Below are positions 718 to 15,380 of a DNA stretch of 23,365 nucleotides, in pieces. Origin of the DNA: Candidatus Aenigmatarchaeota archaeon (GTDB taxonomy: Archaea; Aenigmatarchaeota; Aenigmatarchaeia; GW2011-AR5; JAGGXF01); assembly GCA_029932645.1 (NCBI GenBank), contig JAOZPR010000005.1, forward strand, positions 13,337 to 36,701, given 5' to 3'. Each line of letters opens with the position of its first letter. The stretch's first letter is position 1. The notes beneath the pieces were generated by a model. It was given only the letters and a program-made list of their open reading frames with translations, was not told where the DNA came from and did no database searches. The position numbers and the translations under genes are program-made.

Positions 718-1560
718 TTATTTATTGTTCTGAACTAGCAGTTGTCTCGCCTGAGATATCAGATTATTGGTTTTCTTTTCGCTCAGACCTGTTTTCTTCT
801 TCAGCGTTCTTTCTGAGGTAATTATAAGATCATGCAGGCTAATAAAACCGTTCCTGAGTAGTGTTCTCTTCACAGCCAAAGTGGTTTTCAAAATTGTAAC
901 TGGAAAGAAATTCTTCTCCTCTATCATGGCTTCAAGGCTTTTTTTCATTCGTTTCGGATAGAACCAGCCCGTGAGTAACATACCCTTGGCTTTGGCATAT
1001 CTTATTGCGTGCTCTGAAAATTTTGTATTGGTGATGACCCAGGCCCTTGTGAAGTTATAGTTGTTCTTGGATTTGTTGTAGCCATCCTTTATATCCTCCA
1101 ACCTTGCCTCGACCTGGAGAACAACACCAAGGCCACAATACCGGTGTGGGTTTATATGTCTCTTACATTCTATTAAAAACAAGTCAGAATTCTTCTTTGC
1201 TATAACATCGACTTGGTGCTCAACAGAGGCTCCGCGTATAATCTTGTTCCAGTCACACTCAAATCCATGAGATGCCATCAGCTCTTTTACAAACTTTTCA
1301 AAACTTTCCGAGTCAATCTCAGCCAGGGCTTTTCTTAGTCTATAGTGATATGATGGTCTTAGCTCTTCTTCCTGCTTATCCAGCTTTTTCAAAACCATCT
1401 TGTATATTTCACGTGTTGTTATTCCGTCGTATGCTGACTGCTCTATCTCTGCTGCTATTTTTCTTGCCCTGCCTCTTGAAACACCAGCGCGCAGGCATGT
1501 TGCCTCTATCTTTCTTGGCATCAGCTCTTCCCGCCGGCCGTCCGCTTTTATTACGTACAT
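718..1560 (-). CDS. ATP-cone + Mrr-like PD-(D/E)xK endonuclease + C-terminal HhH protein
   Basis: N-terminal ATP cone (MYVIKADGRREE...KI...C..AG...TTREI), Mrr catalytic pattern (FEKFV..L....GF; HQVDVIA; LIECK; VITNTKFSEHAIRYA) and a RadA-N-like HhH tail (GLSEKKTNNLI). ATG at 1560 preferred over 1584. Confidence 0.85.
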   Translation of the reverse strand: MYVIKADGRREELMPRKIEATCLRAGVSRGRARKIAAEIEQSAYDGITTREIYKMVLKKLDKQEEELRPSYHYRLRKALAEIDSESFEKFVKELMASHGFECDWNKIIRGASVEHQVDVIAKKNSDLFLIECKRHINPHRYCGLGVVLQVEARLEDIKDGYNKSKNNYNFTRAWVITNTKFSEHAIRYAKAKGMLLTGWFYPKRMKKSLEAMIEEKNFFPVTILKTTLAVKRTLLRNGFISLHDLIITSERTLKKKTGLSEKKTNNLISQARQLLVQNNK

Positions 1561-1597
1561 GTTTTCGCACAACTCCATTAGCATGATTTACAAACTA

Positions 1598-6677: not shown

Positions 6678-7613
6678 ATGAAGCTGCTCAATCAGAAAGC
6701 CTTTTTTGATTTCTTAGGCCAATTGATTAAAAAATATGAATTTTATGCACCCATATCGCAGAAGGAGTTTGACCTGATCAAGCGACCAGAAGACATCTGT
6801 TTTGATTATATTAGAACAGATGTACCAGCCAAAAATATTTTTTTCCCTCGCGAAGAAGTGCTAATGAAATTCTCTGACGAGCGAATAAAAATCATCAAAC
6901 CACGGATGAAAAAAAAGACCATAATCTTTGGGTTGCGCTCCTGCGACCTAGCGGCAATAGAAATCATGGACAAAATATTTGAGAATGACGTCTGGTACAC
7001 GACCAGAAGGATCAACTCGATTCTTATTGGTATGGCGTGCAACAAGACAGATGAATATTGCTTTTGCGCGTCCTTTGGTATAAACCCAAGGGACGGTGAT
7101 GCTGATTTGTGGGTAACCAAGGAAGCTGATAAATTTTTTCTGCGGGAAAAAACCGACGAAGGAAAAAAACTGGTGAAAGGCCTGACGAACACACGAAAAA
7201 AGCCGAAGAAAAGAAGACTGAAGTTCAAGAAAAGGGTTCTTTTCAATAAGAAGGAACTCAAAAAACTCAAGCAACTTGATTTTGATAACTGGAAAGAATG
7301 CTTGGCCTGTGGAGCATGCACAACGGTTTGTCCAACATGCCACTGTTTTGATGTCGTGGACGTTGCTGAACAAGACCTCAGAAGTGGCGTGAGAAAACGT
7401 GTGTGGGCATCCTGCATGGAAAGGGACTTCTCAAGGGTTGCCGGCGATGCCATCCTCCGAAGCAAAAGAACAGACCGGCTGCGGCAATGGGTCCTGGATA
7501 AATTCGTTTATTTTGAGCATCATTACGGCCACATGGGCTGCGTCGGCTGCGGTCGTTGCATCAAGGCATGTCCTGTCGGAATAGATATAAGGAAGATACT
7601 GAAAAAGAAATGA
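6678..7613 (+). CDS. hydB: Group 3b [NiFe]-hydrogenase (sulfhydrogenase) beta subunit, AsrA-like 4Fe-4S protein
   Basis: GLRSCD, C-x5-CFC, CLACGACTTVCPTCHC, R.W.SC, R.RQW..DKF, CVGCGRCIKACP. Confidence 0.9.
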   Translation: MKLLNQKAFFDFLGQLIKKYEFYAPISQKEFDLIKRPEDICFDYIRTDVPAKNIFFPREEVLMKFSDERIKIIKPRMKKKTIIFGLRSCDLAAIEIMDKIFENDVWYTTRRINSILIGMACNKTDEYCFCASFGINPRDGDADLWVTKEADKFFLREKTDEGKKLVKGLTNTRKKPKKRRLKFKKRVLFNKKELKKLKQLDFDNWKECLACGACTTVCPTCHCFDVVDVAEQDLRSGVRKRVWASCMERDFSRVAGDAILRSKRTDRLRQWVLDKFVYFEHHYGHMGCVGCGRCIKACPVGIDIRKILKKK

Positions 7614-7642
7614 AAAAAATGATAATAAAAAATGAATAAACT

Positions 7643-8407
7643 ATGAGTGGTAAAATGGAAAAACTCAAGCGCGTGAAGATAACCAAAACCAAGAAAGAGG
7701 CGCCTGATACTTTTACATTCAGGGTTCAGAACAAACTTGGTAAAATCGAGCCAGGACAATTTGTCTTCGTGTCTATCAACACGGTTGGCGAGGCGCCGAT
7801 ATCCGTGTCGTCGATACAAAAGAAATATATCGAGCTTACCGTGAAAAAACTCGGGCTGGTCACAACCGCGCTTTTCCAGAAAAAGGTTGGCGACTCGGTC
7901 TACGTACGCGGACCTTACGGAAACGCTTTTCCGAAAGCAAAACAGTACATACTTGTGGCTGGCGGTTTCGGCCTGGCACCGCTAAAAGCGCTCATAGAAG
8001 AAAGACCGAAGAACATAAAAAAACTCTTTTACGGCGCGTGCACGTACAGAGACATGATATTTAAGGATGAGCTCAAAAACTGGCAGTTCGCAGAGATGAT
8101 AGCAGAGAAAAGGACCCGCGGATGCCGTCTGGCAACCGGTCTTGTAACTGACTTAATAGACAAGGCAAAGTTAAGCCCTGTTGCTACCGTAATAATATGC
8201 GGCCCACCAATAATGCTCAAGTTTGTCGCACAGGCTCTGGAGAAAAAAGGGTTCAGGGATAGGCAAATATACGCTTCGCTTGAGAAAACCATGCACTGCG
8301 GGACTGGTATATGCGGTCACTGCAATATTGGTTCATATTACGTGTGTAAGGATGGTCCGGTTTTCAGGCTTGATAAAATAAAAGGATTTGAAGAAAAAAT
8401 TATTTAA
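7643..8407 (+). CDS. hydG: Group 3b hydrogenase gamma subunit (FAD/NAD(P)-binding, 2Fe-2S)
   Basis: PGQF, GEAPIS, RGPYGN, AGGFGLAPL, CGPPIM, CGTGICGHC...VCKDGPVF. Confidence 0.92.
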   Translation: MSGKMEKLKRVKITKTKKEAPDTFTFRVQNKLGKIEPGQFVFVSINTVGEAPISVSSIQKKYIELTVKKLGLVTTALFQKKVGDSVYVRGPYGNAFPKAKQYILVAGGFGLAPLKALIEERPKNIKKLFYGACTYRDMIFKDELKNWQFAEMIAEKRTRGCRLATGLVTDLIDKAKLSPVATVIICGPPIMLKFVAQALEKKGFRDRQIYASLEKTMHCGTGICGHCNIGSYYVCKDGPVFRLDKIKGFEEKII

Positions 8408-8438
8408 TTGCGCGCGCAGTGTCATAGTAGGGATTTGT

Positions 8439-9146
8439 ATGACGAAAAGAAAAAGGCTCCGTATTGGTAATTTCTGGATGGCTGGTTGCATAGGGTGTCA
8501 GCTTGAGTTATTTAATGTACAAGACGGCACCATAGACTTTGCGGACTATCTTGATATAATAAACTTTGATTTAATTCAAGAGAAGAATATAGCAGGTCCG
8601 CTTGACATCGCCTTTGTTGAAGGTGCGATAACAAACAAAAAAGAGGAAGAAGAGCTGCGCAAGATAAGAAAAGAAAGCAAAATACTTGTTGCGCTTGGTA
8701 GCTGCGCGTGTTTTGGTTGTATACCTGGCCTCAAGAATTTTATACGCGGCCGGCCTTTTGGCGTTGCAAAACCGCTACATAAATTCGTAAAGGTTGACTA
8801 CAGATTGCGCGGATGTCCGATAAACAGGAAAGAGTTTATAGATCTTGTCAGACACCTGACAAGAGGTCTTCCGTATAGGGAAAACACATCACCGGTCTGC
8901 ACAGAGTGTCCTCTGAAGGGCAGCGACTGTTTTTTGAAAAAGGGCATCCCATGTATGGGCCCTATTACGGCAGCGGGCTGCGAAGCAATATGTATGAAAA
9001 ACGGTCAGGCCTGTGAGGGATGCAGAGGCCCGATACCAAATGCGAACATATCATCTTTATTCGAATTGTTTGAAAAATTCGGCATGAAACCCAGAGACAT
9101 AAGAAAAAAATTCAGAAAATTCGCCGGAAAAGCCTTTGGTGAATAA
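8439..9146 (+). CDS. hydD: Group 3b hydrogenase small (delta) subunit
   Basis: GCIGCQ, VEGAI, LGSCA, GCP, VCTEC, CMGPITAAGCEAIC, CEGCRG; ATG 8439 preferred over TTG 8388. Confidence 0.92.
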   Translation: MTKRKRLRIGNFWMAGCIGCQLELFNVQDGTIDFADYLDIINFDLIQEKNIAGPLDIAFVEGAITNKKEEEELRKIRKESKILVALGSCACFGCIPGLKNFIRGRPFGVAKPLHKFVKVDYRLRGCPINRKEFIDLVRHLTRGLPYRENTSPVCTECPLKGSDCFLKKGIPCMGPITAAGCEAICMKNGQACEGCRGPIPNANISSLFELFEKFGMKPRDIRKKFRKFAGKAFGE

Positions 9147-9147
9147 G

Positions 9148-10389
9148 ATGAAAAAAATAACAATAGACCACATCTGCAAGATATATGGTCATGCCAACCT
9201 GACTATTAAGGTCAGTGGTAAAGATGTCCAGAAGGTTGACCTGAATATCTTCGAGTCCTCAAGATATTTTGAATCCATTGTAAAAGGCCGTTCTTATAAG
9301 GAAGCGCCTGAGCTCACAAGCAGAATATGCGGCATCTGTTCTACTGCTCATCAGATGGCCTCACTGAAAGCGATGGAGCATGCACTCGGCATAACACCAA
9401 GCCCGCAGACCAAGAAGCTGAGAGAAGTTCTACACATGGGCGGGATTATTCAAAGTCACGTGTTTCACACATATTTCTTGGCATTGCCTGATTATCTTGG
9501 ATATGACAGTGCCATTCAAATGAGCAAGAAGCATAAAGAAAAAATAAAAAACGCACTTTCACTGCGCCGGGCTGGTAATGAAATTATGAACATAATAGGC
9601 GGCCGTTCTGTTCATCCGATAAGCTGCAGGATTGGCGGGTTTGACAGACTGCCAAAAGAGGATGATATAAACAAGCTGGTTAAAAGCCTGAAAGAAAAGC
9701 GCAGGCTAGCTTTGAAAACAATTGAGCTCATGAAAGGTTTTCTGAGAAAAGAATTCGAAAGAAAAACACAGGTCATCGCACTCAGAAGCAAAGACTATTC
9801 ATTCATTGATGGTGTTATAGCAACAACAGAAAAAGATGTGGAAGAAGACTACCGGAGATATATTAAAGAATACCGTGGCGAACCAAAAAAGACCACAACA
9901 CTAGGAGGCAAGTCTTATAGGGTGGGCCCTCTTGCCAGGTTTAAAATCAACGGGTGCCCAGTAAAAAAATGTAGCATTCAGATATCGCTTGATTCGCCTT
10001 TCTCCGGAAACTTTATCAGGGCACTCGAGGTTTTACATTGTATAGATAAAAGTATAGAAATATTGGGTGCTATGAAGATAAAAAAAGAGAAGCCGCAAGA
10101 AAAGAAGCAACTGAAAAAAGTTAACGAAGGATTTGGAACTGTAGAAGCGCCAAGAGGTGTGCTTTTTCACCATTATAGATTTAACAGGCATGGACGTGTG
10201 AACAAGGCAAATATAATAACGCCCACTGCGCAAAACCTGAAAAGCGTTGAAGATGATGTCAAAGTTTTTCTCCCTCTTCTGCTCAAAAAGAAAAAGAAGA
10301 CCATTGTTCTGGAGCTGGAAAAACTGATAAGGGCATATGACCCGTGTATTTCATGCTCTACACATTTTCTTGAGGTGAAATGGATATGA
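9148..10389 (+). CDS. hydA: Group 3b [NiFe]-hydrogenase large (alpha) subunit, with atypical N-terminal motif
   Basis: L1 SRICGICSTAH, EAPRG, IITPT, L2 RAYDPCISCSTH plus a 7-aa tail; ATG 9148 preceded by SD GGTGA. Confidence 0.93.
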   Translation: MKKITIDHICKIYGHANLTIKVSGKDVQKVDLNIFESSRYFESIVKGRSYKEAPELTSRICGICSTAHQMASLKAMEHALGITPSPQTKKLREVLHMGGIIQSHVFHTYFLALPDYLGYDSAIQMSKKHKEKIKNALSLRRAGNEIMNIIGGRSVHPISCRIGGFDRLPKEDDINKLVKSLKEKRRLALKTIELMKGFLRKEFERKTQVIALRSKDYSFIDGVIATTEKDVEEDYRRYIKEYRGEPKKTTTLGGKSYRVGPLARFKINGCPVKKCSIQISLDSPFSGNFIRALEVLHCIDKSIEILGAMKIKKEKPQEKKQLKKVNEGFGTVEAPRGVLFHHYRFNRHGRVNKANIITPTAQNLKSVEDDVKVFLPLLLKKKKKTIVLELEKLIRAYDPCISCSTHFLEVKWI

Positions 10390-11165
10390 AAGATTTCTAT
10401 AAGGAAAGACCGAAGAACAGCCATAAAGGAGACTTTGGCCGATTGGCTGTGATAGCATATGAATACACTGGCGCTCCTGCGCTTGTTGCCATGGCAGCGC
10501 TGCGCTCCGGTGTAGATATTGTTGAAATCATCGCGCCAAAAGAAAAAGCGAGTACAATAGCTTCATTCTCTCCGAATCTCATTGTACGGCCTGTTGTTTT
10601 TTCTCTCGAGAACATAGAAAAAGAGCTGCAACGGGCAGACGCGTTCTGCGTCGGATCCGGATTAGGGAAAGATAAAAAAGTTCTGGGCATCGTCAAAAAG
10701 ATTATATCCAAAACGAAAAAGCCATGCGCCATAGACGCAGATGCTCTCGGGGTTGTTGATAAAAAGAATCTAAAAGGTAAACCGTTTGTATTGACACCTC
10801 ACAGGAAGGAGTTTGAAATATTCGGTAAATTGATCGAAAACATAGAACAAAACAAAAAAGCCGTGGAAAAAGCAGCAAAAAACCTCGGCGTTGTGATTTT
10901 GCTCAAAGGCCCAACAGACATAATCTCAGACGGCACCAACACAAAGCTGAATAAAACAGGCAACCCTTACATGACAAAGGGCGGAACAGGCGACGTGCTG
11001 ACAGGCATAGTCGGCTCTTTGCTTGCACAGGGATTAAAACCATTCAGGGCTGCATGCCTCGGCGCCTATATATCTGGCTTGGCAGGCGATGCTGTGTCAA
11101 AAGAAAAGGGTCCTGGGCTGCTGGCGACAGACGTCATAGAAAAGATACCTGATATAATAAAATAA
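10386..11165 (+). CDS. nnrD: NAD(P)HX dehydratase, stand-alone
   Basis: SHKGDFG, YTGA, GSGLG, IDADAL, TPH..EF, LLKG, GNP.M..GGTGDVL. ATGA overlap with the hydA stop; SD GAGGTGA at 10372-10378. Confidence 0.92.
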   Translation: MKDFYKERPKNSHKGDFGRLAVIAYEYTGAPALVAMAALRSGVDIVEIIAPKEKASTIASFSPNLIVRPVVFSLENIEKELQRADAFCVGSGLGKDKKVLGIVKKIISKTKKPCAIDADALGVVDKKNLKGKPFVLTPHRKEFEIFGKLIENIEQNKKAVEKAAKNLGVVILLKGPTDIISDGTNTKLNKTGNPYMTKGGTGDVLTGIVGSLLAQGLKPFRAACLGAYISGLAGDAVSKEKGPGLLATDVIEKIPDIIK

Positions 11166-11264
11166 GATATTAAAAATATAATAAAAAATAAGGTAGTAAA
11201 GTGGACAAAAAACAAATAAAAATAATAAAAACAGTGGCCGAGTTTATCAGCCCTAAGGCATACA

Positions 11265-11456
11265 TCATTGTTCAATTATGGCGTTTTCTATATCTTCCAT
11301 TGTCATGTTTTCTATGGCTTCTTCCATCTCTTGCTCTATTGCTTTCATAGCCTGGCCCTCTGCTGTTGCCTCACCTGTGACTGTTGGCTGCTGAACACAA
11401 CCACTGATAAAAACAACCGATAACAACAGTGTTATCAGCAATATTTCTTTTATCAT
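11265..11456 (-). CDS. Small lipoprotein with acidic helical tail
   Basis: Signal peptide with lipobox ISG-C (MIKEILLITLLLSVVFISGC); SD GGTGA inside the end of the upstream gene. Confidence 0.8.
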   Translation of the reverse strand: MIKEILLITLLLSVVFISGCVQQPTVTGEATAEGQAMKAIEQEMEEAIENMTMEDIENAIIEQ

Positions 11457-11458
11457 AT

Positions 11459-12421
11459 TCAGTCACCTGTCTCATCTGTTGTAATTCCTTGTCCATCAGT
11501 GATTTCTTGTTCGCTTTCAACAGTCTCGTTTGTTATTGGTGGATTGACAACTTGGCCTGATCTTATTTTTTGAAGTCTCTCTAGCTGGCGCGCCCGGATT
11601 TTTTCTTTGACCAGTTTCCTAGCTTGGATAGCTTTCCTGCATACTGTGGCTTGTGGATTTTTTAGACAGTACTGTTCTGTTGTCTGTACCAAGAAAATCT
11701 TGCATCTTTCTTCATCTGGATGGTTCTTACAATATACTCTTAGTGCATATCTGCATCTGGCATCATCCAGATTGTCGATACAATACTCCTTGAATATGGC
11801 TTTACATCTCTGGTCATCCGGATTGTTCTTGCAGAATGTCTTTATCTTTTCCCTGCACGACGGGTCTTTAGGATTTTTCTCACAGTATCTGTTTCCTATA
11901 CCTTTCGCAACAGCAACGCATTTTGCCGGATATAACTCGCAGAAACTATGTATGTTTTCTGCCAGTTCTACTGCTCTAACTTTTCTGATGGCTCCTAAAA
12001 TATATGTGTTGTATGTCGCACCACTTACATCTATTGTTCCGACCCAGACCTCTGTGTCTCCCTTTTCTACTGATTCAGCGCTGATGCTGCCCACTTTTTC
12101 ATCGCCAGAATACAGATTGGCTTCAATAGAACCATTACCAAGTACTATGTCCTTCACCTTGTATTTGTCATCGTCCAAGAAAAGCACACCAACCATCAGC
12201 TCTGTTTCTTCGCCAAGCAGACTCACTTTGATATTACCAATACCTATCTTGACAATCTTAAAGTCCATAAGATCTGCTGGGTTTGTTGCTATACCCTTAC
12301 CGAGAACTGCCAGTTTTTTTATAACTGGCCTTGGTGCTGTTGTCTGCGCACTAAGCTGCCCCTGCGCAAAAACAGGCATCACAAAAAGCAGAACAGCGAG
12401 CACCGCAAAGATTTTTTTCAT
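11459..12421 (-). CDS. Secreted protein with beta-rich N-domain and tandem C-x8-C repeats
   Basis: Signal peptide MKKIFAVLAVLLFVMPVFA; 12 Cys in six pairs; SD GGGTGA; start at 12421 or 12424. Confidence 0.85.
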   Translation of the reverse strand: MKKIFAVLAVLLFVMPVFAQGQLSAQTTAPRPVIKKLAVLGKGIATNPADLMDFKIVKIGIGNIKVSLLGEETELMVGVLFLDDDKYKVKDIVLGNGSIEANLYSGDEKVGSISAESVEKGDTEVWVGTIDVSGATYNTYILGAIRKVRAVELAENIHSFCELYPAKCVAVAKGIGNRYCEKNPKDPSCREKIKTFCKNNPDDQRCKAIFKEYCIDNLDDARCRYALRVYCKNHPDEERCKIFLVQTTEQYCLKNPQATVCRKAIQARKLVKEKIRARQLERLQKIRSGQVVNPPITNETVESEQEITDGQGITTDETGD

Positions 12422-12489
12422 CATCTATCACCCTTGTTTTGTTATTAATTTTTTTATTAATCAGATTATATTATCTATGTTTTGGCGTA

Positions 12490-12504
12490 TTAATAAAGTT
12501 TTTG
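12490..12504 (-). promoter_or_regulatory. BRE/TATA promoter for the secreted protein-lipoprotein pair
   Basis: Minus strand CAAAAAC-TTTATTAA, with the same BRE as the gpmI promoter. Confidence 0.45.
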
Positions 12505-12509
12505 AAAAT

Positions 12510-12881
12510 TTATCGCAAAACTTTGGCCAGAAATTTTTTGACCTCCTCAACATCCGCATCAAAAGGTATGCCTAATATTTTTAGATTTTTTATTTCTTTC
12601 ATAGTTTTTAGTAGGTTGATGACAAAACCCAGGTCCAAGTCATGGAGAGTTGAAATCCGCCTTTTTTTAATATCATCTTCTGACAACGTACAAGGCTCCT
12701 TTATGCCTTTCACGACATCTACTATGACAACGTCTTTTTCACCATGTATAACAAACGGATCCTCTGTCTTTACAAACTCCATAGAAGGAAAATCCTCTGC
12801 TAGCTTGTCAGCAATAAACCATGCGTGTGGGTCATTAGAAGAGCCGAAAACAAAAATTTTCCTTTTCGTTTTTGCGTTCAT
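12510..12881 (-). CDS. Short, divergent hydrogenase maturation protease-like protein (HyaD/HycI-like)
   Basis: IFVFG, VVIVDVV, STLHD and KILGIP recall HyaD strands and the Asp/His ligands. It lacks GN..(G)DDG. Located in the hyp operon; ATG 12881. Confidence 0.6.
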   Translation of the reverse strand: MNAKTKRKIFVFGSSNDPHAWFIADKLAEDFPSMEFVKTEDPFVIHGEKDVVIVDVVKGIKEPCTLSEDDIKKRRISTLHDLDLGFVINLLKTMKEIKNLKILGIPFDADVEEVKKFLAKVLR

Positions 12882-12883
12882 AA

Positions 12884-13795
12884 TCAAACGCCACTAACAA
12901 GCTCGCTTTTTACATGAGAAACCAGATATGCACCGACCAAAACCATTGCCGAGCCAAAGAGCTGCATTGCTGGTGCTGGCTCGCCCAAGAATGTGATACC
13001 CAGTATCAACGATACAACAGGTGCCAGAAGCAACAAAGTTGACGCTTTTGATGCGTTGATGAACTTTATGCTGTTATACCAGCAAAACACGTAACCAAAG
13101 AGGAATAGCGTGGAAACAATGATTTTGATTATCTGTTCCTGTGTCAGCATGAACAAAACGTTTGCCTTGCCAAAGTAAAACACGGCCAAGAAAAGGAATA
13201 TTGAACCAAAGAACATACGGGAAAAGGTTACGATGTAATTGGACTCTTTCTTTAGCATGACACCTCTCGCAATAATATTCTCAATAGCCCACAGGAATGT
13301 TGCAGATATGACAAGTAAATCACCAAGAGATGGATTTGCCCACAGCTCTGCTGGGTTTATTTTTGTCGAAAAAATAATAACAGTTCCCAAAAACATCAGG
13401 GCAAGCGCTCCGAGCTGTTTTCTCGTAATCTTTTCCTTCAAAAACAGAAATGCAAGTAATGTTATGTAAAGTGGTAGCGTCTTGTGGAGAAAAGCGGCAC
13501 GCCCGCCTGTGGTCAGCCCAAGACCTGTGAAAAACAGCAAGAACGCCACAGCCCCGCCTATGAGACCTATCATTAGCATGGCAAACCAGTTAATCTTTCC
13601 AGCTCTTTTTTGAAAATCTTTTCTGTGCAAGGCTATTACAAAAAATACTATGCCTATTATAAAGGCGCGGACTGCTGTGAAAACAGTTGGGTCTATAGAA
13701 GCGATGAAAACCTTGTTGACTATTATTGAGAAGCCGCTTATCAGCGCTGTTGTAAGAGCAAACAACGTTCCTTTCATCTCGTTATCCATAATCAT
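12884..13795 (-). CDS. EamA/DMT family transporter (about 10 TM)
   Basis: Two-repeat hydrophobic pattern, FLKEKIT, GDLL...A...WA, LGE; start at 13795 or 13789. Confidence 0.9.
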   Translation of the reverse strand: MIMDNEMKGTLFALTTALISGFSIIVNKVFIASIDPTVFTAVRAFIIGIVFFVIALHRKDFQKRAGKINWFAMLMIGLIGGAVAFLLFFTGLGLTTGGRAAFLHKTLPLYITLLAFLFLKEKITRKQLGALALMFLGTVIIFSTKINPAELWANPSLGDLLVISATFLWAIENIIARGVMLKKESNYIVTFSRMFFGSIFLFLAVFYFGKANVLFMLTQEQIIKIIVSTLFLFGYVFCWYNSIKFINASKASTLLLLAPVVSLILGITFLGEPAPAMQLFGSAMVLVGAYLVSHVKSELVSGV

Positions 13796-13810
13796 TACCT
13801 ATATGATAAT

Positions 13811-14368
13811 TTATCCTACAAGGCATTTAAATTTTTTCAATGCGTTGCCATCTTCATAGTAACTTATCAGCTTGTCATACTGCTTCTTTGTTATTTTTTC
13901 AACCATATAACCATAGTGCACGACAACATGGTCTCCTTGCTTTGCATCAGGCAGAAAGTCCTTTTGGTATTTTTTAATACCAATAGGCGTCCTAACCATC
14001 CCGTCATCTGTTACAACAACACCAGGCCAGACAATGCAACGCTGGACAGGTATGTCTTTGAACACCGTGTTACGCTGCTCTATGGCCTCTACGTGCTTGA
14101 ACCAGAAGTATTCGTGAAGAATCTGGACATCTATTTTTTCCTTACCACTTTTTTTCGCCAAGATTATCAGCATCCTGACGGCTATTGTAAAAATCTTTTC
14201 CAAGTCATCTCTGATTTTTTCATTTTTCATCAGCTTTGATTTGAGCTCATCAATGGTTTTTTCACTTACCTTGCCCCGCCTGATTAACACCATGCTGCAA
14301 GGTATGGCATATCTAAGAAAAAGCCTCTTGGTTTCTTCAGAATCGAACACCACAGTCGTTTTCAGCAC
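13811..14368 (-). CDS. Hydrogenase-locus protein with C-terminal HypC-like OB-fold (resembles DUF6390, from recall)
   Basis: FLRYAIPC...YFW..H...CIVWPGVV...GDHVVVHYG..VEKI; GTG start directly abutting the hypC stop. Confidence 0.65.
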   Translation of the reverse strand: MLKTTVVFDSEETKRLFLRYAIPCSMVLIRRGKVSEKTIDELKSKLMKNEKIRDDLEKIFTIAVRMLIILAKKSGKEKIDVQILHEYFWFKHVEAIEQRNTVFKDIPVQRCIVWPGVVVTDDGMVRTPIGIKKYQKDFLPDAKQGDHVVVHYGYMVEKITKKQYDKLISYYEDGNALKKFKCLVG

Positions 14369-14563
14369 CTAAGCCTCTTCAAGAATCTTCTTTGCCTGCT
14401 TCTTATCCACAATATCCATCACAAAACCACCGTAAACGAGAACATAGTCGCCCAGCTTTGGCTTGAGAAGCTCTGTGCTGGCCTTTATTTTCTGGCCTTT
14501 TACTTCTGCCAAGACTTCTTCTTTCTCAATCTTAACAACCTTGGCTGGTATTGCCAGACACAT
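14369..14563 (-). CDS. hypC: HypC/HupF hydrogenase maturation chaperone (variant)
   Basis: MCLAIPAKVV...GDYVLVYGGF; ATG 14563 with SD GAGGTG gives the canonical Cys2. Confidence 0.9.
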   Translation of the reverse strand: MCLAIPAKVVKIEKEEVLAEVKGQKIKASTELLKPKLGDYVLVYGGFVMDIVDKKQAKKILEEA

Positions 14564-14572
14564 TTTCACACC

Positions 14573-14908
14573 TCAGTCAATAACAACTTCCTTTAAAATA
14601 ATCTTGTCGCCGTCTATAATATTGTTTTCTCCCAGCTCTTTTTTGCATTCCGGACACCTGAACCTGGTGTATGCATGTGCCTTCTCAACTATCTCAGGTT
14701 CGCCCTCAAAACCGCACTCGCATTTTACAAGGCCCCGCTTTTTAATAATCTTTATATCCCATTTGACAAGTCCGCTCAAAGCATGTTCAAGTTCGTCAGC
14801 AGGCAGATGCGCTAGGTCGCCGACTTCCACTGCTATTGATTTTATTTTGCCGTTGGCGCTCTTTTTTGCTGTCTGGATTATGTCGTTAGCTATTGCAAAC
14901 TCATGCAT
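14573..14908 (-). CDS. hypA: HypA nickel metallochaperone
   Basis: MHE Ni motif, VEVGDL, Zn site CEC...CPEC, IIDG; SD GAGGTGA overlapping the nadM stop. Confidence 0.92.
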   Translation of the reverse strand: MHEFAIANDIIQTAKKSANGKIKSIAVEVGDLAHLPADELEHALSGLVKWDIKIIKKRGLVKCECGFEGEPEIVEKAHAYTRFRCPECKKELGENNIIDGDKIILKEVVID

Positions 14909-14915
14909 GCTCTAA

Positions 14916-15380
14916 TCACCTCTTTTTGCTTTTGCTTTTAATTATAGTTGCTACGCTTCTTGGAACCAAGTATTGCCACGGTTCGCCGCGGCGCATGAGT
15001 CTTCTTATGCGCGTTGCGTTATACTTTTGACGCTCAAGAAAATCCGGCCTCTTGACCGGTTTTATATCGGCAAAACAGCGCCTAACCCATGCAGAACCTG
15101 TAACAACCACATCGAATTTCATTTTTTTCATTATGGTTTTTGCCCATTTCGCGTCGGAGTTTACGTCAGGCATGATAAAAATTCTGTAATTCTTCTTTTT
15201 TAGTGAGGATTTTATCATCTTTCTTCGGGCGGCGAAAGAAAACGGGTTTTTCCTGTCTGCTTGCTTTGGCCCGCCTATAACTATATTGACTTTTTCGTAC
15301 TTTTCCTGGAGCTTTTCTATTGCGTGTTTGTGACCATTATGAAAGGGCTGGAACCTTCCAACAAAAAGCACTGCACCCAT
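14916..15380 (-). CDS. nadM: NMN adenylyltransferase (archaeal NadM family)
   Basis: GRFQPFHNGH, NPFS, NATRIR, W..LVP; appears leaderless. Confidence 0.85.
   Translation of the reverse strand: MGAVLFVGRFQPFHNGHKHAIEKLQEKYEKVNIVIGGPKQADRKNPFSFAARRKMIKSSLKKKNYRIFIMPDVNSDAKWAKTIMKKMKFDVVVTGSAWVRRCFADIKPVKRPDFLERQKYNATRIRRLMRRGEPWQYLVPRSVATIIKSKSKKR

Follow-up and report, generated by a model that had tools for sequence, protein, structure and literature searches.

The stretch of DNA analysed here (the window, 23,365 nucleotides, positions 13,337-36,701 of contig JAOZPR010000005.1) comes from a member of Candidatus Aenigmatarchaeota whose assembly, of 718,593 bases in 43 contigs, is 89% complete. 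It carries an intact group 3b-type [NiFe]-hydrogenase operon facing a compact module of helper genes, in a genome where a profile search found no HypB, HypD, HypE or HypF. According to PMC12134894, six Hyp proteins are necessary for the cofactor of all [NiFe]-hydrogenases. We found that the system is real, conserved and unexplained by the textbook pathway. Its best explanation, which we hold at somewhat less than an even chance, is that the module completes the enzyme with a preformed Fe(CN)2CO unit that it has salvaged rather than built.

The genes of the two facing operons were called from Pfam and NCBIfam scans with family cut-offs, alignments and matches in the Protein Data Bank (PDB), and are as follows:

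6678..7613, plus strand: hydB, group 3b beta subunit, 4Fe-4S dicluster (Fer4_22, E 2e-32; ShyB, HydB and AsrA models below cut-off)
7643..8407, plus strand: hydG, gamma subunit, FAD/NAD(P)-binding with an Fe-S domain (FAD_binding_6, NAD_binding_1, DHODB_Fe-S_bind)
8388..9146, likely ATG at 8439, plus strand: hydD, small subunit, cluster cysteines kept (Oxidored_q6; alignment)
9136..10389, likely ATG at 9148, plus strand: hydA, large subunit (C65, C68, C404, C407, R340 and H410 kept; Tyr17 at the proton-gate Glu; 7-residue tail)
10380..11165, plus strand: nnrD, NAD(P)HX dehydratase, overlapping hydA (TIGR00196 above cut-off)
12510..12887, minus strand: putative short hydrogenase maturation protease, 125 residues (HycI; D19, D57 and H82 kept in the alignment)
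12884..13795, minus strand: EamA/DMT permease of a module-specific orthologous group, predicted importer (Pfam, a profile built in this work, PDB match, locus map)
13811..14368, minus strand: 185-residue relative of DUF6390, predicted Fe-cofactor scaffold (N-terminal region with C24 and H92; internal HypC domain with C111 and H151)
14369..14563, minus strand: hypC, 64 residues (ATG at 14563; reading frame 14569-14369; Cys2 kept, conserved His replaced by Tyr44)
14573..14908, minus strand: hypA, nickel chaperone (above the Pfam cut-off; N-terminal MHE and zinc-finger cysteines kept)
14916..15380, minus strand: nadM-type nucleotidyltransferase, first gene of its operon (below the NCBIfam cut-off)

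Genes, coordinates and strands hold as given in the initial annotation, which had described hydBGDA-nnrD facing a packed nadM-hypA-hypC-185-residue-EamA-protease operon; to its layout we add two minus-strand genes between the protease and nnrD, encoding proteins of 321 residues (12424-11459) and 63 residues (11456-11265). The genes from nadM through the protease are tightly spaced, with gaps of -4 to 15 bases.

The absence of hypB, hypD, hypE and hypF, first noticed in the window, extends to the whole assembly at its 89% completeness: HypD and HypB returned no match, and every match to HypE and HypF fell below cut-off. From their translations, we take the latter to be an acylphosphatase, TsaC, Kae1, ThiL, PurL and PurM. 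Profiles built in this work detected a single genomic copy each of the large subunit, the small subunit, HypA and the protease. The genome also yielded no carbamoyl phosphate synthase, which provides the cyanide ligands in the known route. Nor was a HydG-type source of CN and CO found: none of the 9 radical SAM proteins of the genome (one of which had no family) matched that type.

Many other genomes show the gap too, and the small kit is conserved as a module. A HydA match was obtained in 13 of 61 genomes (the source genome and 60 relatives); HypD is missing from all 12 of the other HydA-bearing ones, and all 12 carry a homologue of the 185-residue protein at the locus. We also surveyed 274 genomes of the phylum with a completeness of at least 80%, counting large subunits by profile match, and obtained a large subunit in 104, HypD in 8 and the profile of the 185-residue family in 106. 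Thirteen of these 106 matches were dropped as HypC-only, leaving 93 (73 strong, and 20 weaker that reach the N-terminal half); 79 of the 93 genomes have a large-subunit match and one has HypD, while the family occurs in 14 of the 170 genomes without a large-subunit match. The genome with both (G242) has the module at one locus and hypCDE on another contig. HypE was matched in 1 of a separate set of 79 module genomes tested for it, from which 8 strong-hit genomes were left out, and one further genome of the phylum has a long-form DUF6390. Among the named genomes (80 loci, 50 genomes tested for HypD), HypD was found in 0/14 of those with the module at the locus and DUF6390 in 2/28 of those with HypD, and 16 of the 22 HypD-less genomes carry the 185-residue/DUF6390 family.

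One could argue that the hyp genes are merely unassembled, or that the system is a decaying relic, given a genome in 43 contigs and 89% complete, several deviating motifs, and 18 of the 104 large-subunit genomes of the phylum with neither HypD nor the module family. We consider this very improbable. The gap is not an assembly artefact because 92 of the 93 module genomes, at a completeness of at least 80%, are without HypD, and an actinomycete lacking HypD, HypE and HypF has a 7.43 Mb contig in a 7.4 Mb genome. Further, all genes of the locus are intact, and the hydrogenase and module genes are under purifying selection, with ratios of nonsynonymous to synonymous substitution (dN/dS) of 0.02-0.12 against G001, a genome of the same genus, which resemble those of pgk and gapdh (three genes with saturated dS were excluded).

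The large subunit retains the binding pocket of its relatives. Its best PDB match is to 3b enzymes (E 3e-72); the group 3b-type label rests on the operon, the motifs and the closest solved relatives, with all NCBIfam Hyd and Shy models below cut-off for the proteins of the operon and no HydDB references in the trees. The four active-site Cys and the Arg of APRG are kept, as initially annotated, and so are EAPRG and the C-terminal His. Across 31 module-linked and 28 HypD-linked 3b-type large subunits, the four Cys, R43, R63, P339-R340-G341-L343, P363, H111 and D402 are invariant, and APRGxL, the PT/PS motif, H108, H111, D402 and the four Cys are kept in 31/31 module enzymes. For the pocket residues other than the Arg we assume their customary roles. 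According to PMC3325256, the Arg forms hydrogen bonds to the CN ligands. In a FastTree phylogeny of 101 rows (which excludes long-tailed and group 4-type rows, untested named loci, the duplicate L070 and most of the 120 homologues described below), module and HypD enzymes are close sisters at three places, among actinomycetes and in two clades rich in the Candidate Phyla Radiation (CPR). Next to the module we also find four-Cys large subunits of group 4-type (L147-L154) and other large subunits with four Cys, including one at L191 that we take from its motifs to be of group 1h. A kit common to several hydrogenase groups points to a shared need, the cofactor. As separate observations, the module-linked, CPR-type large subunits L136 and L138 have Asn in place of the C-terminal His that follows the last Cys (DPCMSCATN), and at L026, L027, L028 and L032, hyd2-type loci with the same module, a truncated small subunit is fused behind a flavoprotein of ~500 residues upstream of the large subunit. 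This flavoprotein is presumably thioredoxin-reductase-like.

These data bear on the two interpretations offered by the initial annotation, an alternative cofactor route and a different metal centre. The second would have a centre without CN/CO (Ni only, Ni-Fe or another metal) carry out a non-H2 reaction such as NAD(P)H-dependent sulfur reduction, with the module delivering plain metal. It would suit a genome with no known source of CN or CO, beta and gamma subunits that resemble AsrA/AsrB, a Cys2His2 site in the 185-residue protein that could hold a simple metal, and the Glu17Tyr change of this lineage (Tyr in 12 of the best 120 of 341 homologue clusters). However, the two sets of enzymes do not differ in their pocket residues, the gate Glu is kept in 28/31 module enzymes, the sets are interleaved on the tree, and the module accompanies other hydrogenase groups too, so we regard a different centre as unlikely; the sequences favour the same cofactor by another route, and it is to this alternative route that the evidence points.

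The proton gate was the first of three deviations noticed in the locus. HydA has Tyr17 (KIYG, compared with RVEG in the alpha subunit of Pyrococcus furiosus sulfhydrogenase I). Among the best 120 of 341 homologue clusters, 107 have Glu at this position, 12 Tyr and one Ala, and 3 of the 12 Tyr clusters are the window's own, G001-like and G051-like sequences. Tyr is present in 3/31 module-linked and 0/28 HypD-linked large subunits, so we rejected it as a signature of the module: the change is real but lineage-specific. On the tree its carriers form four supported groups, as several origins would predict, but a single clade is not rejected by the approximately unbiased test (p-AU 0.41). Pro265 and Arg295 accompany every Tyr and were considered as compensation; they are background, because 41 Glu-bearing rows have both. 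E28 has been termed the universal proton gate, its E28Q variant being defective in proton transfer (PMC8020662), while E14Q of the Thiocapsa roseopersicina enzyme kept about half of its activity and an Arg-Asp-His route was proposed (PMC3325256). In the window HydA, R340 and H108 are retained, and the position of the Asp is occupied by Ser, as in P. furiosus. Tyr17 is likely to lower or reroute proton transfer in this lineage, and we give H2 turnover by the Tyr17 enzyme slightly better than an even chance.

The second deviation is in HypC, where Tyr44 occupies the position of the conserved His (in alignment with Thermococcus kodakarensis HypC; E. coli H51) and the N-terminal Cys is kept. The His is lost, with the Cys kept, in stand-alone HypC at 22 of 24 module loci and at none of the 12 HypD-linked loci (one mis-parsed row was dropped). 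In E. coli, the Cys and His of HypC are proposed to bind iron together with C41 of HypD (PMC12134894), and HypC alone has been proposed to deliver the Fe unit (PMC11565642). At our locus a His is present instead in the neighbouring 185-residue protein: in an alignment with HypC, its C111 corresponds to the N-terminal Cys and its H151 to the conserved His. The profile of this protein matches T. kodakarensis HypC with E 1e-15 over the C-terminal part. The protein has 238 representatives at E<=0.001; in 132 aligned homologues H92 and H151 are invariant and C24 and C111 occur in at least 90%, and HupF_HypC is matched in 117 and DUF6390 in 40 (E<=0.01). By its sequence it is a short relative of DUF6390 (PF19927), below the membership cut-off of that family (19.5 bits against 25): it shares the first Cys, the Cys and His of the HypC domain and the gene neighbours, and its Atlas model superposes on a DUF6390 model with a TM-score of 0.71, but it is ~60 residues shorter. 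C24, H92, C111 and H151 may form one metal site. The taxa of the nearest Atlas clusters of the protein point to Aenigmatarchaeota as the probable phylum of the source.

The third deviation, in the protease, is a three-residue deletion that erodes the first motif (GSSNDP, as against GNxLxxxD in relatives); D19, D57 and H82 align with conserved positions of full-length proteases. Its HycI match is 1 bit over the cut-off (24.0 against 23), and no PDB match was found at E<=1. The short type also occurs in three HypD-bearing genomes (L064, L085, L121), which led us to reject it as module-specific; it goes with large subunits of DPANN and CPR organisms. All three substitutions in the initial annotation are thus in the proteins as described, but their reading as one rewired signature fails, since only the loss of the HypC His tracks the module. 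On the whole, the interpretation given in the initial annotation is partly supported.

The EamA protein has two EamA repeats (152.7 bits over 2 stretches). Its sole PDB match is LicB (E 0.0013), and an Atlas search with it returned generic EamA clusters only. In the group of the module, S20, N27, E121, W169, E172 and R193 are invariant in 29/29 sequences, and in archaea, CPR and actinomycetes alike the gene is conserved and lies adjacent. In a map of 58 DUF6390-family loci (7 plain-HypC rows removed), 32 have an EamA orthologue within 3 kb, 11 have HypD or HypE within 6 kb, and none has both. All 11 of the latter come from one actinomycete family, that of genome G332, in which 25 of 201 genomes have DUF6390, located at the mapped loci inside or beside a hyp operon. 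Since 18 of these 25 also have HypD, DUF6390 is not a pure replacement for it, and a strict mutual exclusion of the two was rejected. When 5 of 7 HypD-less DUF6390 actinomycetes were tested further, HypF and HypE were found in none and a large subunit in all five. DUF6390 is therefore a real maturation accessory that can function together with HypDEF, and the absence of HypDEF tends to go with the presence of EamA. A carrier that is fed either by synthesis or by import fits this split, which favours salvage. We also observed that at L190-L201, all from one actinomycete family, DUF6390 lies in or beside complete hyp operons with no EamA, and that L183 and L191, from two other genomes, have hypA-hypC-DUF6390 with neither EamA nor HypD.

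Two other explanations have to be weighed against these loci. The module might build the normal cofactor de novo by novel chemistry, with the DUF6390 protein replacing the HypD scaffold and EamA supplying nickel, an iron-thiol complex, cyanide or thiocyanate. The co-occurrence and residue data suit it as well as they suit salvage, free-living actinomycetes carry the module without HypDEF, and a nickel importer would help where HypB is missing too, high nickel being known to bypass HypAB (PMC12134894). Nevertheless we think it rather unlikely: the 185-residue protein, with its two conserved Cys and two His, matched no Fe-S or nucleotide-binding family, no source of CN or CO was found in the source genome, and the place of DUF6390 beside complete hypFCDE operons at 11 loci suits the role of an accessory carrier more than that of a substitute catalyst. 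Alternatively, the module might only receive holo-HypC, the cofactor or Hyp proteins from a host by cell contact, EamA being incidental. This is a distinctly unlikely account, which leaves the free-living actinomycetes without HypDEF uncovered and sits poorly with an EamA gene conserved and adjacent across three such distant groups, even if most carriers are small-genome DPANN/CPR organisms and EamA is missing at 15 of the 47 DUF6390 loci without HypD/E nearby.

Under the salvage explanation, EamA would import a small Fe(CN)2CO-type complex from a host or neighbours. The 185-residue protein would receive the Fe unit and bind it through C24/H92/C111/H151, acting as a scaffold much as HoxV/HupK do; HypC, keeping just Cys2, would carry the unit to apo-HydA; HypA would insert nickel without HypB; and the protease would cut the 7-residue HydA tail. 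The mature hydrogenase could then reoxidise NAD(P)H from glycogen or sugar fermentation by H2 production or sulfur reduction, with nadM and nnrD helping.

Several points weigh against salvage. No free Fe(CN)2CO species is known to exist outside proteins, and the support for import comes from genes and sequences; the substrate of EamA could be nickel, a thiol or something else. Fifteen of the 58 DUF6390-family loci have neither EamA nor HypD/E nearby, and no donor is evident for the free-living actinomycetes. Among the genomes of the G332 family, HypD is close by in 18/25 with DUF6390, as against 11/55 without it. Neither system was found in 6 of the 22 HypD-less named genomes, in addition to the 18 of 104 in the phylum, and the counts lack independence because the surveyed genomes are related to one another. 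Finally, the Tyr17 enzyme may turn over H2 poorly, because the Glu it lacks is the one called the universal proton gate (PMC8020662).

Several known systems are close to this locus. With P. furiosus sulfhydrogenase I (PDB 9nez, 9e15) and the cytosolic hydrogenase alpha subunit 5yxy it shares the beta-gamma-delta-alpha operon, the four Cys, the APRG Arg, the C-terminal His and a short tail; it differs in the Tyr at the proton gate and in a genome where HypB, HypD, HypE and HypF were not found. From the canonical HypABCDEF system, with its HypC-HypD scaffold (PMC12134894, PMC11565642), it retains HypA, a HypC that keeps Cys2, and a putative protease in which two Asp and one His align with the conserved positions, but HypB/D/E/F were not found, the HypC His is lost, a Cys/His pair lies inside a DUF6390-family protein, and EamA is linked. 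The Fe(CN)2CO carriers HoxL/HoxV and HupF/HupK (PMC12134894) offer a possible parallel, an extra HypC-type domain plus a second protein in which the Fe unit would rest on its way from the source to the apo-enzyme. HoxV and HupK, however, resemble the large subunit and act downstream of HypCD, whereas the 185-residue protein mostly occurs without HypD and gave no large-subunit-like match in Pfam, NCBIfam or PDB.

The 3b-related hyd1 and hyd2 enzymes of CPR (Jaffe et al. 2020, PMC7304191) are likewise patchy, occur in small genomes and neighbour fam002, which is partly homologous to HypC; full and truncated small-subunit types, as in hyd1/hyd2, both occur among the loci examined here. In the available portions of that text and its supplements we found no mention of missing HypDEF, EamA or DUF6390. 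An unknown maturation route has been argued for archaeal [FeFe] enzymes (PMC11216029), a parallel case, and other studies treat 3b enzymes without addressing maturation in the parts available (PMC9258230, PMC8421398, PMC10811913). Our literature search, by titles and the start of abstracts and with most subscription papers outside its coverage, gave nothing on DUF6390 and no description of the module. The presence of DUF6390 inside complete hyp operons, the split between EamA and HypD/E, and the spread of Tyr17 are results of this analysis.

The hydrogenase locus is embedded in a cluster of sugar genes: iPGM, a sugar-phosphate nucleotidyltransferase, pgk and gapdh (divergent from hydB), ADP-PFK/GK, a glycogen synthase-like glycosyltransferase, FBP aldolase/phosphatase and tpi, where pgk, gapdh and tpi bear the names that we assume from their sequences. 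G051, from another family, has the same layout with nadM, nnrD, gapdh and pgk and also Tyr at the proton-gate position; among the relatives' loci compared, nadM and nnrD are linked to the locus in G001 and G051 only. The 321-residue protein (minus strand, 11459-12424) has an N-terminal hydrophobic leader and ~8 short Cys-rich repeats of the C..NP.D..C type, with no Pfam or NCBIfam family above cut-off, 73% identity to its G001 copy and a dN/dS of 0.11. It is followed by the 63-residue gene (minus strand, 11265-11456), which is lipoprotein-like. At 718-1584 (minus strand) an ATP-cone is joined to an Mrr-type restriction endonuclease and an AF1548-like C-terminal domain, and is conserved in G001. 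Elsewhere in this small-genome archaeon, contig C33 encodes a tetraether lipid synthase Tes above cut-off (L204:1189-2685) and contig C3 has His-Xaa-Ser radical SAM-like genes. ARAGORN gave just 2 tRNA genes in the 718-kb assembly, so RNA genes are mostly unassembled or intron-split.

In its general form, our proposal is that many archaea and bacteria make working [NiFe]-hydrogenases without HypD, HypE and HypF, a dedicated EamA importing Fe(CN)2CO and a DUF6390 scaffold with a His-less HypC loading it, to which this lineage would add a Tyr for the gate Glu; we put this, too, a little below even. If it is true, the Fe(CN)2CO cofactor would be a traded metabolite, and recombinant hydrogenase production would become simpler with a loading kit of four genes. 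Enzymes with Tyr17 offer a natural test of the proton-gate Glu. Actinomycetes carry both forms of the system, which makes the question of maturation testable in culture. In the phylum, HypD occurs in 7 of the 104 large-subunit genomes and the module in 80, which means either that there is a second route of hydrogenase maturation, or that H2 metabolism has been misassigned in many DPANN and CPR genomes.

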